Shown here one piece after another: positions 33,639-50,138 of a stretch of DNA of 52,744 bases. Made by a program: the position numbers and the translations under genes. A model generated the notes under the pieces. It was given only the letters and a program-made list of their open reading frames with translations, was not told where the DNA came from and ran no database searches. The DNA is from Clostridia bacterium. Its GTDB lineage: Bacteria > Bacillota > Clostridia > Christensenellales > Borkfalkiaceae. The DNA is taken from assembly GCA_900767495.1 (NCBI GenBank), contig CAAFZH010000104.1:1-52744 (forward strand). The letters are read 5' to 3'. Every line of letters begins with the position of its first letter. Within the stretch, counting starts at the first letter, position 1.

Positions 33639-33683
33639 TGGCTGGGGTAGAGCGATTCGAACGCCCGAATGACGGAGTCAGAG
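33639..33683 (-). repeat. att direct repeat: displaced 3' half of tRNA-Gln (anticodon loop to CCA)
   Basis: 45 of 45 positions are identical to 50064-50108. Identity stops on both sides (33638 versus 50063, and 33684 versus 50109). Confidence 0.95.
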
Positions 33684-33856
33684 ACTTCCCTAAAATTTAT
33701 AAAATACAAGAAAACGCTGTAATTATCTTACTTTTTGCGCCTTTAACGATTGATATAAAGTAAACGCCCAACCGTCGCCCACTATTTGAGCGCCGAAAGG
33801 GCGTTTTCTCTTTTTTTATCTTGTCAAGAAATTTTACAACAAATTTGCAATTTTTC

Positions 33857-33885
33857 TTGACTTTGCTAATACAATATAGTAAAAT
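33857..33885 (+). promoter_or_regulatory. promoter of the candidate antisense sRNA
   Basis: TTGACT (33857-33862), 17 nt, TAAAAT (33880-33885). Confidence 0.6.
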
Positions 33886-33891
33886 ATAAGT

Positions 33892-33987
33892 GCAAAGGGC
33901 GAAACTGGTTCAGGCAGTTAGCCCGATTGTTTGACTAATTAAAGAAATAGCCGCAAACTCGCGCTTCGAGGGCGGCTATTTCTTTTT
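33892..33987 (+). ncRNA. candidate ~95-nt antisense sRNA (type I antitoxin), convergent with the toxin peptide gene
   Basis: The promoter is followed ~60 nt later by a strong terminator: AAATAGCCGC (33945-33954) pairing with GCGGCTATTT (33972-33981), then TCTTTTT. The region has no ORF. Its 3' end overlaps the last codons and 3' UTR of the minus-strand peptide gene. Confidence 0.5.
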
Positions 33988-34053
33988 GTTATCATTGAGT
34001 TCTTTCACTATTAAGTAGATAAGTACAAGACACAATATAGAAATTATATCCAT
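33976..34053 (-). CDS. 25-aa hydrophobic peptide, candidate type I toxin (Fst/TxpA-like architecture)
   Basis: AGGGGGTGA RBS 7 nt before the ATG. Translation MDIISILCLVLIYLIVKELNDNKKK has one TM-like stretch and a charged tail. The stop codon lies inside the shared terminator stem. Too short for the ORF track. Confidence 0.5.
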   Translation of the reverse strand: MDIISILCLVLIYLIVKELNDNKKK

Positions 34054-34116
34054 TTGATATCACCCCCTTTGTAAAAGAGAGTGCTAACCGCCACAGGTCG
34101 CCCCTGCACCGTTACA

Positions 34117-34145
34117 ATTATAAACCAAAACGGCTATAATAGCAA
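34117..34145 (-). promoter_or_regulatory. promoter of the toxin peptide mRNA
   Basis: Minus strand: TTGCTA (34145-34140), 17 nt, TATAAT (34122-34117). It predicts a ~55-nt 5' UTR. Confidence 0.6.
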
Positions 34146-34166
34146 CCGAATTAAATATAGGTTTGT

Positions 34167-34364
34167 TTATTTTTCGTTTTTCTTTTGCAGTTCGCCGCTT
34201 GCCCAACGCAAGAACTGCGCCTTGTTCATACCACTATTTTTTATAATAGCGTCTATTTCGGCAGCCTCGGCAGGCTTAAGCCAGGTTGCCCACTTTACCG
34301 AGTCCGTTTTATGCGTTTCGCGGTATCTTTTATCGGCGGCTTTCTGCGCCTCACTTCGTGCCAT
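34167..34364 (-). CDS. 65-aa ribbon-helix-helix-like DNA-binding protein
   Basis: GGAGG RBS. The segment WATWLKPAEAAEIDAIIKNSGMNKAQFLRWA fits the beta-strand/helix/helix RHH (CopG/Arc/MobC-like) pattern. Confidence 0.5.
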   Translation of the reverse strand: MARSEAQKAADKRYRETHKTDSVKWATWLKPAEAAEIDAIIKNSGMNKAQFLRWASGELQKKNEK

Positions 34365-34376
34365 TTTCGCACCTCC

Positions 34377-34547
34377 TTAAAATAAGTCGTTTTCGGCTAC
34401 AAACGCCTTTAAATCCTCGAACGACGGGCAGTCGGACTTTAAAATCTTCGCCGTTGCCGTTACTCCGCTATCGTTCAATAGTGAAACCGTCCAGGTTTTG
34501 GGGTTTTCCGCCACTTCGTAAACTTTGCCTTTTTTTTCAATAATCAT
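34377..34547 (-). CDS. 56-aa hypothetical protein
   Basis: GGAGG RBS before the ATG at 34547. Translation MIIEKKGKVYEVAENPKTWTVSLLNDSGVTATAKILKSDCPSFEDLKAFVAENDLF. Its stop is followed directly by the RBS of the next gene. Confidence 0.45.
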   Translation of the reverse strand: MIIEKKGKVYEVAENPKTWTVSLLNDSGVTATAKILKSDCPSFEDLKAFVAENDLF

Positions 34548-47815: not shown

Positions 47816-47847
47816 AAAAAAAACGGAGCGACATACTCGCCGCTCCG
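47816..47847 (-). terminator. rho-independent terminator of the yafQ-dinJ operon
   Basis: Stem CGGAGCG (47824-47830) pairs with CGCTCCG (47841-47847). On the minus strand it is followed by T8. Confidence 0.75.
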
Positions 47848-47861
47848 CTTAAAAATTTTTA

Positions 47862-48137
47862 TTAAAATAAGTCGCTATGACTGCCCGTTCTGATTAAGTA
47901 CAAGTAGAGAATTTCTTCGTCGTACTCGTACACAAGTAGCCAGTCGGGTCTTATATGACATTCGCTACAACCCGCGTAATTACCCGTTAAGGTATGATTT
48001 CGATATTTTTCGGGTAGAGGACTACCTTCCGCAAGTAAATTCAACACGGTTTCGAGCAGTTTAAAGTCAGTACCGCGTTTTTGCATTAGTTTAAGGTCTT
48101 TTTTAAATTGAGTGGTCGGCTTTAGAGTATATTTCAT
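47862..48137 (-). CDS. yafQ: type II toxin, YafQ/RelE family
   Basis: MKYTLKPTTQFKKDLKLMQKRG..PLPEKYRNHTLTGNYAGCSECHIRPDWLLVYEYD..LIRTGSHSDLF is a near-textbook YafQ-family sequence. It overlaps the antitoxin stop by 4 nt. Confidence 0.9.
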   Translation of the reverse strand: MKYTLKPTTQFKKDLKLMQKRGTDFKLLETVLNLLAEGSPLPEKYRNHTLTGNYAGCSECHIRPDWLLVYEYDEEILYLYLIRTGSHSDLF

Positions 48138-48406
48138 TTAAGCAAATCCTCAATCATTTCGTGCGCGTCGGTATAAGACTTGCCGACGGTACGGTCTTTC
48201 TTCATAAGTCTGACTTCCTCTATCGCCGCAAGCGTTTGCGCGTTGGGAGTTATTTCGATACTAAACGGTATCGCCTGCTCCCTCACCGCCTGTTTTGCAA
48301 ATACGGTAAACGCGGTAGACATATTCATTCCCAATTCCGAAAACAATACGTCGGCTTGCTTTTTAAGGTTTTCGTCCATTCTTATGGTTACGTTTACGGT
48401 AGACAT
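48134..48406 (-). CDS. dinJ: type II antitoxin, RelB/DinJ family
   Basis: MSTVNVTIRMDENLKKQADVLFSELGMNMSTAFTVFAKQAVREQAIPFSI is the typical DinJ/RelB RHH N-terminus. Confidence 0.9.
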   Translation of the reverse strand: MSTVNVTIRMDENLKKQADVLFSELGMNMSTAFTVFAKQAVREQAIPFSIEITPNAQTLAAIEEVRLMKKDRTVGKSYTDAHEMIEDLLK

Positions 48407-48437
48407 AATTTTTCACTCCTTTACGTTTGGTATTTAT

Positions 48438-48499
48438 ATTTTACCATATATTTTATGCAATGTCAATAAATTTATGTGCAATATAATTACAATGCACAT
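48438..48499 (-). promoter_or_regulatory. promoter of the dinJ-yafQ operon with an upstream palindrome
   Basis: Minus strand: TTGACA (48466-48461), 17 nt, TAAAAT (48443-48438). Inverted repeat ATGTGCA (48474-48480) / TGCACAT (48493-48499). Confidence 0.65.
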
Positions 48500-48918
48500 A
48501 TTTTTATATAATTTTTCTCTTATGGGAGGTGTTTTTGCATTATATAATTTGTCGCACGGGTACATTGCGCGCAGGCGCGGCACTTAAATTTCAATATTTT
48601 TAGTTCTAAAAATATTGAACGCCCGGCTAATTTTTCATCCCGATTTTTTTGAGATATAATAGTATTAACTATTATTCGGAGGTCTGTATTTTGAAAAATA
48701 CCGAGCAACTTTTTAACTATTCCGACTCCTTAAAGCAAATATTGTCCATCGCGCGGCAAACCCTTTGCTTTGACGATAAATCCCTGCAACTTTCTACCTT
48801 GCGTGAAAAGTTCAAGGTTTTATCGTTTCCCGCAACAAATTTTACCCCGCCTCAACCGTGCGGGGCGCAAAAAGAAGATGAAACAGCGCTTTCGTTTACT
48901 GAAAAGGAGTATACGAAA

Positions 48919-49941
48919 ATGCCTAAAAAATTTAAAAACGAATTTCGCACCGGGCGCGTTAAAGCGCGCGTTCGCCAACGCGAAGACGGTCGCTACGAAA
49001 TTCGCTGTCAAATCAACAAACAAAAAATAACAGCCTCGAGCAAAATTCTCGGGGTCGCAAAAGAAAAATTTATCGAACGGTTAAAAATCGCGGCTAACCC
49101 GCAAGCGGCACTAACCTCAAGCAACGTTAAACTCGGCGTTTATATGAAAAAATGGCTCGAAACGGTAAAAAAGCCGTATATCAAGCCGAATACTTATAAA
49201 TTCTATTTACAAACCTTTAACGCGTACATAGTTCCGCGCCTCGGCGACCGCGAACTTACGAGCATTAAAGCCTTCGAGTTACAAGACTTAATCAACGAGT
49301 TTACTAACGCCGAAAAGTTCCGAACCGCTCAAAAAGTCAACTTGCTACTCTCTGCCGTATTCGATTACGCCGTTTCCGACGAACTTTTACAACGCTCGCC
49401 GATGAAAAAAGTTATCGTCGGCATTTACGAGCAGGAACACGGCACGCCCTTAACCAGGAGCGAAGAATCAGACTTTATTCGTGCTTTTATGGGCGACCCG
49501 GGAGTGTACCGTCAGGCGTTCGCCTTTATTCTTTATACCGGGCTAAGACGCAGCGAACTTTCTTCCGTAAGCGTTTCCGATAAATGGGTTACGGTTACAA
49601 CCTCGAAACAACGCAAAGGCAAGAAAGAAAAGCAACGCCGAATACCGATTTCGCCTATGCTGCGGAAGATCTTACCGCTAATAGACGTCGCCGCGATTAA
49701 AGCGCTTTCGGTCGGTACACTCACGAAGTGGTTTAAAGTCTACTGCCCGTCGCACCACTTGCACGACTTGCGACATACGTTTATTACTCGATGCCAGGAG
49801 TGCGGCATACAACGCGAATTAGTTTCGCTTTGGGCAGGACACGCCGCCGACAGTTCGATAACTTCTGCCGTTTACACGCATTTGGAGCAATTCGAAGGTC
49901 GTCAATTAGAAGAAATGCAAAAGTTTATCTACGATTTTTAA
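48919..49941 (+). CDS. int: tyrosine recombinase/integrase of the 16.4-kb element
   Basis: I place the start at ATG 48919 with an AAGGAG RBS; the track's TTG at 48649 adds 90 aa of non-integrase-like sequence. Arm-binding-like N-terminus RVRQREDGRYEIRC. Catalytic C-terminus HDLRHTFITRC..LWAGHA..VYTH. The gene ends 122 nt from the att repeat. Confidence 0.85.
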   Translation: MPKKFKNEFRTGRVKARVRQREDGRYEIRCQINKQKITASSKILGVAKEKFIERLKIAANPQAALTSSNVKLGVYMKKWLETVKKPYIKPNTYKFYLQTFNAYIVPRLGDRELTSIKAFELQDLINEFTNAEKFRTAQKVNLLLSAVFDYAVSDELLQRSPMKKVIVGIYEQEHGTPLTRSEESDFIRAFMGDPGVYRQAFAFILYTGLRRSELSSVSVSDKWVTVTTSKQRKGKKEKQRRIPISPMLRKILPLIDVAAIKALSVGTLTKWFKVYCPSHHLHDLRHTFITRCQECGIQRELVSLWAGHAADSSITSAVYTHLEQFEGRQLEEMQKFIYDF

Positions 49942-50018
49942 AAATACCCGCCCACTTTATCGCCCAACTTTTTACTATTTAAAAAACGACGTCGTTTTAA
50001 AATAGCAGTTTTAACGAC

Positions 50019-50059
50019 AAAAAAGGTAGATTTTAAGGCTTTTCACCTTAAAATCTACC
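50019..50059 (-). terminator. terminator downstream of tRNA-Gln, supplied by the element
   Basis: GGTAGATTTTAAGG (50025-50038) pairs with CCTTAAAATCTACC (50046-50059). On the minus strand it is followed by TTTTTT. Confidence 0.75.
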
Positions 50060-50063
50060 TAAA

Positions 50064-50138
50064 TGGCTGGGGTAGAGCGATTCGAACGCCCGAATGACGG
50101 AGTCAGAGTCCGTAGCCTTACCGCTTGGCGATACCCCA
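50064..50138 (-). tRNA. tRNA-Gln(CUG): tRNA-Gln (anticodon CUG), CCA encoded
   Basis: The reverse complement TGGGGTATCGCCAAGCGGTAAGGCTACGGACTCTGACTCCGTCATTCGGGCGTTCGAATCGCTCTACCCCAGCCA folds as a cloverleaf. Acceptor stem TGGGGTA/TACCCCA; anticodon stem ACGGA/TCCGT with loop CTCTGAC; T-arm GGGCG-TTCGAAT-CGCTC. It closely resembles bacterial tRNA-Gln. Confidence 0.9.

Follow-up and report, generated by a model that had tools for sequence, protein, structure and literature searches.

A tRNA-Gln-integrated element of gut Clostridia and its relatives: a candidate lineage of capsid-less, membrane-assembled, non-lytic virus-like elements

What kind of mobile element joins an intact integrase and a phage-type switch to an operon of membrane proteins, with no recognizable gene for a virion or for lysis? 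The question is raised by contig CAAFZH010000104.1 (assembly GCA_900767495.1) of a Clostridia bacterium, whose 52,744 nucleotides were analyzed as a whole and are referred to here as the window. It contains an element of 16,425 bp flanked by perfect 45-bp direct repeats of the 3′ end of a tRNA-Gln gene (Table 1). An earlier reading made from the letters without database searches (the sequence-only reading) had located these att repeats correctly and had suggested a filamentous or membrane-type prophage, or a new kind of transfer element. In our analysis this cautious interpretation holds, and the element is best filed as a kind of non-lytic, membrane-assembled virus, its membership in any named family being unproven. 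We propose, with moderate confidence, that it is a functional and recently mobile member of a new lineage of capsid-less, membrane-assembled, non-lytic virus-like elements.

The absence of capsid, terminase, portal, tail and lysis genes, which had been judged from the open reading frames (ORFs) by eye, was upheld by profile comparisons. No family for a capsid, portal, terminase, tail, endolysin or holin was matched in Pfam, PHROGs or NCBIfam, beyond weak immunoglobulin (Ig)-domain matches of the surface protein p348 (E 0.005-0.03). These point to a major tail protein and an Ig-domain structural protein and are the sole structural PHROG matches. In NCBIfam, 10 proteins gave no match.

What the element encodes instead is a 13-gene operon running on the minus strand from 45123 to 35315, with gaps or overlaps of 1-12 nt between genes. 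The one-strand arrangement and the richness in membrane proteins had both been described before and are borne out here. A hydropathy scan places N-terminal anchors or signal-like segments in p71, p145, p159, p156, p249 and p348. At its 3′ end, the operon encodes in order a 997-aa surface protein (p997), a P-loop ATPase with four transmembrane (TM) helices and a RepL-like protein. The first two had been recognized as a signal-peptide, C-terminally anchored protein followed by a 4-TM ATPase, in agreement with hydropathy and, for the ATPase, with an AlphaFold 2 (AF2) model.

The ATPase model, with a predicted local distance difference test score (pLDDT) of 77.9, consists of a disordered basic N-terminus (residues 1-100), four TM helices at about residues 161-285 and a C-terminal P-loop domain. 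Zot is the sole Pfam family matched recurrently by the family ATPases (15 of 39, best E 1.3e-5), and 2 of 10 short-form relatives exceed the Zot gathering score. A Foldseek search of viral models returned an unnamed protein (3.7e-10) and Zot proteins of Inoviridae (5.5e-6, 1.5e-4 and 2.2e-4). Against the PDB, nothing fell below 1e-3; the N-domain of Zot (2r2a) ranked second, at 5e-3 with a TM-score of 0.5. The ATPase profile had no match among PDB sequences, and only 241 relatives emerged when 1.84 billion protein representatives were searched with a profile, about a dozen of them long forms and about 200 short forms of ~360-500 aa. Among the 50,697 phage records of INPHARED, tblastn gave only one weak match, to a Zot gene (E = 0.03). 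Taken on sequence, the ATPase family appears as a small distinct branch, not as canonical Zot.

Homologues of p997 were found in 13 loci, always immediately 5′ of the ATPase, and in two loci the protein is replaced by analogues (558 plus 672 aa, or 715 aa). Its distal cassette (residues ~50-300, window ~39900-40650) is 16-40% identical between elements, whereas the remainder of p997 and the ATPase are 98-100% identical in those same elements. This pattern suggests that a receptor-binding or antigenic tip is exchanged while the stalk near the membrane is conserved. For p997, neither a Pfam domain nor a sequence relative in the PDB was found; a second (profile) search added no further homologues, and tblastn found no match among the same phage records. 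The neighboring p145 has homologues in 19 loci, always just 5′ of the large protein. Its anchor is lipobox-like in relatives, and we read its beta-rich ectodomain of ~110 aa as probably Ig-like.

The sequence-only reading had seen no obvious rolling-circle Rep. This point has to be revised, since a candidate initiator of RepL-like type is present and was overlooked, and a relative carries Rep_1. The RepL-like protein is probably 139 aa long, starting at 35734. The window protein itself has no match to Pfam RepL (PF05732) at E ≤ 1, and 12 of 17 orthologues do match it (best 2e-8); the copy in the circular relative L059, described below, passes the gathering score (24.7 against 20.3 bits). The rolling-circle plasmids of the pSN2 type use initiators of the RepL class (PMC5703833), and the product of this gene is a candidate initiator of the rolling-circle class. 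A structured non-coding module lies 3′ of the gene, with a consensus fold of 5-6 hairpins supported by 7 compensated pairs and no Rfam match. Its second, inverted copy lies 3′ of the 93-aa XRE gene. The module is a candidate origin (double-strand or single-strand, dso/sso) or small RNA.

The element is not alone. Public data hold 85 relatives of the ATPase at 35-100% identity, nearly all unnamed. In GTDB genomes there are 25 ATPase loci, all in metagenome-assembled genomes (MAGs) of gut or rumen Clostridia that are mostly labelled Christensenellaceae, and 21 further loci come from metagenomes. Eight relatives with enough flank are 12.4-13.1 kb long, bounded by 24-49-bp repeats, and are inserted at the 3′ ends of five tRNA genes (Gln, Leu, Ser, Met or Glu). 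Gene order is fixed: an integrase, an adjoining XRE gene, variable small cytoplasmic genes and often a lipoprotein-like protein of 330-470 aa are followed by a p145-like protein, a signal-peptide protein of ~970-1000 aa with a C-terminal TM segment, a 3-4-TM ATPase and a winged helix-turn-helix (HTH) protein of ~125-145 aa. The family core comprises the XRE repressor, the small anchored beta-rich protein, the ~1000-aa surface protein, the 3-4-TM ATPase and the RepL-like initiator. The window element is a larger member that additionally encodes a toxin-antitoxin pair, further XRE proteins, three anchored paralogues and a small module of cargo genes.

One relative (L059, ERZ827469 NODE-3064) was assembled by SPAdes as a contig of 11,550 bp whose ends overlap by 55 bp. 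Since this overlap falls inside unique coding sequence, the contig represents a closed circle of 11,495 bp. It encodes the p348-like, p145-like, large, ATPase and RepL-like proteins as well as a GNAT acetyltransferase; genes for an integrase, XRE or relaxase are absent. Free circles are therefore one form in which members of the family exist. Another relative, from a Eubacterium sp. MAG (L028, positions 1647-13424), is an 11.7-kb element in tRNA-Val with 53-bp repeats and the same layout. Its ATPase is of the short form (28% identity), its 934-aa protein matches Flg_new above threshold, and the position equivalent to the RepL-like gene is taken by a Rep_1 initiator of the rolling-circle type (4.9e-29). 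Because Rep_1 stands here where other members have the RepL-like gene, replication modules appear to be exchanged around a constant membrane module, and L028 indicates a wider superfamily of this kind. Literature searches on plasmavirus, Zot and Firmicutes proviruses found no prior description. This family of 11.5-16.4-kb integrated or circular replicons in gut Clostridia is undescribed.

Recent movement of the window element is indicated by its insertion site. The 45-bp repeat has no third copy with up to three mismatches (0 expected by chance). In two contigs (L046 and L049) from strains 96-99% identical to the window, the site is empty with base precision: 50064.. is joined to ..33683 through a single 45-nt att overlap. 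In other strains, the same tRNA-Gln holds a different element, or just the remnant of one. The precise empty attB in sister strains implies recent mobility and, with the varied tRNA sites and the circular relative, shows that the operon is not a fixed chromosomal locus, an outcome that would have counted against the sequence-only reading. In addition, assembly GCA_902462775.1 (contig CABQDH010000004.1, 42,361 bp) holds two complete head-to-tail copies that are 100% identical to the window, in the order host flank, attR, element, single att, second complete element and att at the contig end. This tandem assembly, represented by L031, L033, L041, L043 and L052, adjoins the tRNA-Gln flank. The single att between the copies is an attP-type junction, which may come from a real tandem or circular molecule or from an assembly loop and thus provides only moderate evidence of mobility. 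Exact-integrase lookup showed an attP-type junction in one assembly only, and an exact-pattern search found none in the JGI metagenomes.

The integrase was correctly called intact, as the profile matches in Table 1 confirm. It is probably 416 aa long, starting at TTG 48691, and is 60% identical to that of the relative L002, which uses the same tRNA. The proposed switch of three XRE genes with operators also stands. The three XRE genes match HTH_3 with E-values of 3.9e-15, 1e-13 and 4.3e-7, and the intergenic region 47014-47137 contains three operator-like repeats of ~21 bp (TATAGTTCAA..TTGAACT) at 47044-47136. The repeats overlap a perfect sigma-70 consensus promoter, TTGACA-17-TATAAT. The three XRE genes, operator-like repeats and promoter (46339..47419) together resemble a lysogeny-type switch. 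An XRE gene adjoins the integrase in all eight complete relatives.

We propose that these parts could work together as follows. The XRE switch would keep the operon silent, and derepression would lead to excision. The RepL-like protein would start rolling-circle-type replication, probably at the structured module 35042-35254 beside its own gene. Sec-exported anchored proteins would accumulate in the cytoplasmic membrane, where the membrane ATPase may couple ATP hydrolysis to the loading and export of DNA with membrane proteins, without lysis (chronic release), in a manner that parallels pI of filamentous phages. Finally, p997 with its variable tip could mediate adsorption or entry into new hosts.

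Several observations weigh against this proposal. The element is known here from assembled sequence, and its tandem contig could have been produced in assembly by a loop through the 45-bp repeat. The window ATPase itself stays below the Pfam Zot cut-off (E 0.012; 15.5 against 20.3 bits), and in Foldseek the ORF3 protein of Acholeplasma virus L2 (9e-5), RecA and A32-type ATPases score near Zot. Its TM helices are N-terminal to the motor, the reverse of pI. In the operons of five of seven 12.4-13.1-kb relatives (L008, L013, L015, L022 and L023), no single-TM ORF of 40-90 aa was found in a scan by ORF and hydropathy with a minimum length of 40 aa. A classical filament is made less likely by the reversed domain order of the ATPase and by the fact that the family shares no small helical coat protein. 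The AF2 model of p997, built on an alignment of four close homologues, is unusable (pLDDT 37). A scan of IMG/VR found no relative. The element has no recognizable peptidoglycan hydrolase, and genes for SpoIIE, SpoIIID and a CotF-like protein in the flanking host DNA indicate a walled spore-former.

The last points bear on a more specific form of the proposal. These elements might be the first envelope- or vesicle-type viruses, plasmavirus- or pleolipovirus-like, in walled gut Firmicutes. The Zot-like ATPase would load DNA from rolling-circle replication (RCR) into membrane particles, and the tip-swapped spike of ~1000 aa would set host range. With a walled host and no wall hydrolase, vesicle-type release has no evident route, and we regard this form as possible at best and rather unlikely. 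If it is true, a membrane ATPase module would be common to the morphogenesis of filamentous phages, plasmaviruses and pleolipoviruses and would link the three.

A contact-dependent, non-viral transfer element has to be weighed next. The element would then be an integrative or episomal RCR plasmid, with p997 as an adhesin or mating-pair protein and the single ATPase as a pump for DNA, in loose analogy to the actinomycete integrative and conjugative elements (AICEs), whose transfer depends on one ATPase (TraB). The plasmid-class initiators RepL and Rep_1 are in line with this, as are the circular, integrase-less member with its GNAT cargo, an ATPase whose TM helices precede a cytoplasmic motor, the presence in surface proteins of repeats like those of Firmicute adhesins (Flg_new in L028) and the lack of a recognizable structural virion protein. 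The conjugation machinery, however, is missing from the results. Pfam and NCBIfam gave no signal of a relaxase, VirB4, VirD4 or FtsK (FtsK_SpoIIIE) in roughly 30 ORFs, the family-wide ATPase scan shows Zot alone, and FtsK, VirB4, VirD4 and TrwB do not occur among the top 50 PDB structural matches of the ATPase. The sequence-only reading thus withstands the comparison with known conjugation modules that it had itself called for. The tblastn search of the 72,556 plasmids of PLSDB found no relative of the ATPase. Moreover, a phage-type XRE switch with operators and a tight size of 12.4-13.1 kb are more typical of packaged genomes. On this balance we consider such a transfer element rather unlikely, but still a serious rival. 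Two established types were rejected outright: a canonical integrative and conjugative or integrative and mobilizable element (ICE/IME), for lack of a relaxase, VirB4 or VirD4/FtsK-type match, and AICE-type FtsK transfer, for lack of an FtsK signal.

Alternatively, the element may be an integrative plasmid or island that spreads by other vehicles, its module being surface cargo of benefit to the host and its ATPase serving assembly or competitor exclusion. Every module protein except the ATPase is extracytoplasmic, and transfer or virion function is not demonstrable by homology, both of which would suit such an island. Yet the module is the invariant core, while integrases, tRNA targets and replication genes vary around it and the integrase can even be absent. 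The operon is also placed under a phage-type lysogeny switch instead of being constitutive, and Zot, the only family matched recurrently by the ATPase, includes in Pfam the morphogenesis ATPase pI of inoviruses. We therefore find a host-cargo island quite unlikely.

A satellite resembling the phage-inducible chromosomal islands (PICIs), or another helper-dependent element that borrows a tailed-phage capsid, would have the same general build: 12-16 kb, an integrase and divergent repressor, its own initiator and no capsid, tail or lysis genes. No terS, capsid-remodelling or redirection, primase or helicase match was obtained in Pfam or PHROGs, and the 52.7-kb window showed no genes of a tailed prophage. 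The conserved core is instead a membrane and surface module with a TM-ATPase, and we know of no described satellite family (PICI, P4, PLE) that has one. A satellite is thus very unlikely. An icosahedral virus of corticovirus or tectivirus type was rejected as well, since none of the cytoplasmic proteins of the minimal relatives has the size that a double-jelly-roll capsid requires. A tailed prophage of the ordinary kind, now degraded, would share the integrase, XRE switch and tRNA site, and it is practically negligible in view of the lack of any structural remnant (no capsid, portal or terminase signal), the intact and translationally coupled ORFs, the recent mobility seen in the empty sites and a compact gene set kept in more than 40 loci across 35% to 100% ATPase identity, the last of which, with the missing signals, effectively rules out a degraded siphophage.

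The proposed lineage of membrane-assembled elements matters in part for how viruses are found. Virus-discovery pipelines rely on capsid, terminase or canonical Zot markers, and this family has none. It is not in IMG/VR, INPHARED or PLSDB, save for the one weak Zot match in INPHARED, yet gut Clostridia of humans, ruminants and other sources carry it repeatedly, in precise tRNA insertions and as a free circle. If particles are made, the family would represent a hidden class of non-lytic, chronically released viruses in the gut mobilome and a tractable bacterial counterpart to the poorly understood morphogenesis of plasmaviruses and pleolipoviruses. If they are not, it would be a minimal, undescribed module for DNA transfer or surface remodelling. 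Either way, the 4-TM Zot-like ATPase and its cassette-swapping partner of 1000 aa form a usable new marker pair for such elements.

Table 1. Features of the element and its insertion site (positions in the window)
Feature	Position	Strand	Basis
attL, 45-bp copy of tRNA-Gln 3′ end	33639..33683	.	perfect direct repeat; empty-site contigs
Cargo module: 43-aa, 56-aa and 65-aa (ribbon-helix-helix-like) genes	34167..34774	-	ORFs; own consensus promoter 34861-34833
Structured non-coding module, ~215 nt, 3′ of RepL-like gene	35042..35254	-	69% conserved in L002 12561-12788, same position
RepL-like winged-HTH protein, core gene	35315..35788	-	homologues in 20 loci directly 3′ of ATPase
ATPase, 614 aa, core gene	35962..37806	-	4 TM helices and C-terminal P-loop domain, distantly Zot/pI-like
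p997, core gene, candidate adsorption/spike protein	37808..40801	-	signal peptide and two C-terminal TM helices (hydropathy)
p348, lipoprotein-like surface protein	40813..41859	-	N-terminal hydrophobic segment ending ..TGC; weak Big_2 match
p159, p156, p249, three paralogous anchored proteins	41820..43481	-	mutual BLASTP 1e-19 to 1e-3
p145, core gene	43543..43980	-	N-terminal membrane anchor; homologues in 19 loci
Small operon genes: p71 (single TM), p116, p62, basic p68/p47	44051..45123	-	ORFs and hydropathy
Early small cytoplasmic gene, 161 aa	45302-45787	-	ORF
Early small cytoplasmic gene, 67 aa	45816-46019	-	ORF
Early small cytoplasmic gene, 68 aa	46121-46327	+	ORF
XRE, 145 aa	46339-46776	-	Pfam HTH_3
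XRE, 77 aa	46780-47013	-	Pfam HTH_3
XRE, 93 aa, divergent	47138-47419	+	Pfam HTH_3
Second, inverted copy of structured module	47435..47644	+	three collinear blocks 89-100% identical to 35042-35254
YafQ toxin	47862-48137	-	Pfam YafQ_toxin 9.5e-36
RelB antitoxin	48134-48406	-	Pfam RelB 5e-12
Tyrosine integrase	48649..49941	+	PHROG_1 5.6e-44; Pfam Phage_int_SAM_3, Phage_int_M, Phage_integrase
attR, 3′ 45 nt of tRNA-Gln	50064..50108	-	direct repeat
tRNA-Gln(CTG)	50064..50138	-	ARAGORN and Rfam

The remaining operon genes are less widely shared. The block from p71 to p47 is unconserved across the family, save for p116 in 3 loci, and p71 has basic residues before its TM segment and acidic ones after it, the opposite of coat proteins. 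The paralogous p159, p156 and p249 are lineage-specific additions that the 12.5-kb relatives do not have. The InlB-B repeats that had been assigned to these three proteins found no support in Pfam; what can be said for them is a weak BLASTP similarity to a Flg_new protein (3e-4 and 7e-3). The product of the p348 gene is probably 331 aa long and has relatives in 7 loci and in the circular L059.

Two addiction modules had been proposed. The RelB/YafQ pair is confirmed and represents cargo, not found in the 12.5-kb relatives, while the 56/65-aa pair (34167-34547) has no family match. The cargo module that contains this second pair is 81.5% identical in nucleotides to L008 12997-13534, whereas the ATPase of L008 is only 42% identical, which argues for recent exchange of the module. 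At 33975-34052 on the minus strand there is a 25-codon ORF preceded by a good ribosome-binding site (RBS). The encoded peptide is hydrophobic and ends in a basic tail (MDIISILCLVLIYLIVKELNDNKKK); it may be a small membrane toxin or peptide.

The three early genes encoding 68, 67 and 161 aa have no Pfam match. The 161-aa protein had been called YopX-like, a label that finds no support, as no Pfam match was obtained at E ≤ 0.1; the protein has counterparts only in L001 and L002/L005. A 16-nt motif, AAGGAAGRTAACGAAA, which comprises a Shine-Dalgarno sequence and spacer, occurs five times (45125-45162, 45788-45803, 46022-46037 and 46090-46110). Four of the five copies lie directly 5′ of start codons, those of p71, p161, p67 and the plus-strand 68-aa gene. 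The motif may serve these genes as a common site of translational control, or be no more than an RBS that was duplicated.

Outside the element, the remnant of a second integrative element (30823-33638) adjoins attL. It contains a 236-aa integrase fragment, a 119-aa ORF and an AAA_14/DUF4143 ATPase. Other strains encode an intact 408-aa integrase, and the fragment matches its C-terminal 237 aa at 97% identity; the remnant is missing in some strains, and others hold the intact element. This pattern of remnant, intact and absent copies marks the tRNA-Gln gene as an insertion hotspot with tandem accretion. Further left, positions 1-29828 form a run of ~30 kb of large minus-strand genes, labelled ulvan-lyase-like, GH2, GH95 and oxidoreductase from the Pfam labels of identical genes on related contigs, beside an AraC regulator. 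This flank looks like a polysaccharide-utilization cluster unrelated to the element.

How does the family compare with known systems? With the RepL plasmids of the pSN2 family and the Rep_1 plasmids of the pC194 family it shares its initiators, which are RepL-like throughout the main family and of the Rep_1 type in the relative from Eubacterium, and the capacity of members to exist as small circles. Those plasmids are mostly under 5 kb and carry no membrane module, integrase or lysogeny switch (PMC5703833).

The suggested likeness to plasmaviruses and pleolipoviruses survives as a likeness of layout, and homology is not demonstrable. Acholeplasma virus L2 (Plasmaviridae) has a circular genome of ~12 kb that integrates into a tRNA gene by means of a tyrosine recombinase, no capsid genes, and one-strand, translationally coupled operons. 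Its large signal-peptide/TM envelope proteins carry Firmicute surface Ig-like domains. The gene order is also similar, with a double-C-terminal-TM protein, small TM protein(s), an ATPase with a hydrophobic N-terminus, a small protein, the origin and the integrase. However, L2 uses host DnaA-type origins and has no Rep, whereas the family carries an initiator, and the L2 host is wall-less, while that of the element is a walled spore-former. Profiles of the ATPase, RepL-like and large proteins aligned with ORF3, ORF4, ORF13 and ORF1 of L2 by hhalign gave probabilities of 0.1-5.5%, and a hidden Markov model of 120 short-form ATPases scored L2 ORF3 at 5 bits. The Foldseek match to L2 ORF3 does not exceed those to generic P-loop ATPases.

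In pleolipoviruses, the spike has a C-terminal anchor. HRPV-1 and SNJ2 present a collinear block of a small membrane protein, a signal-peptide spike, a polytopic membrane protein and an NTPase, together with interchangeable replication modules (RCR Rep or others), genomes of 7-17 kb and, in SNJ2, tRNA integration (PMC7547991). Their hosts differ, being haloarchaea. Alignment of the ATPase profile by hhalign with VP8 of HRPV-1, the comparison being confined to VP8, covered the Walker A region alone (probability 8%). VP8 and ORF7 had no Pfam match, and in particular VP8 had none to Zot. To judge from these comparisons, the resemblance of the family to L2 and to the pleolipoviruses is one of layout.

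The comparison with Inoviridae goes further. In the family, the sole gene recognizable as a candidate for morphogenesis encodes an ATPase with a distant likeness to Zot/pI. A large signal-peptide, C-terminally anchored protein is encoded immediately 5′ of the ATPase, as gIII stands before gI. Inoviruses, too, have no lysis genes and possess circular genomes of 5-20 kb, episomal or integrated in tRNA genes (PMC6813254), against 11.5-16.4 kb in the family. Initiators of the RCR class, in the family RepL-like candidates or Rep_1, and toxin-antitoxin cargo are also common to both (PMC6813254). The differences concern the ATPase, which is far outside canonical Zot and has its TM helices N-terminal instead of C-terminal, and its conserved partner, which is a 145-aa anchored beta-rich protein and not a single-TM coat protein of 30-90 aa. 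The gut Firmicutes inoviruses described so far measure 5.6-9.4 kb and have a stand-alone Zot domain (PMC8530359). The inovirus likeness first suggested for this element has a basis in the Zot matches of 15 of 39 ATPases and in the structural matches to Zot, whereas a small coat protein is not found across the family. While it lies outside the canonical Zot family and does not share the small coat protein, the family works most like the inoviruses.

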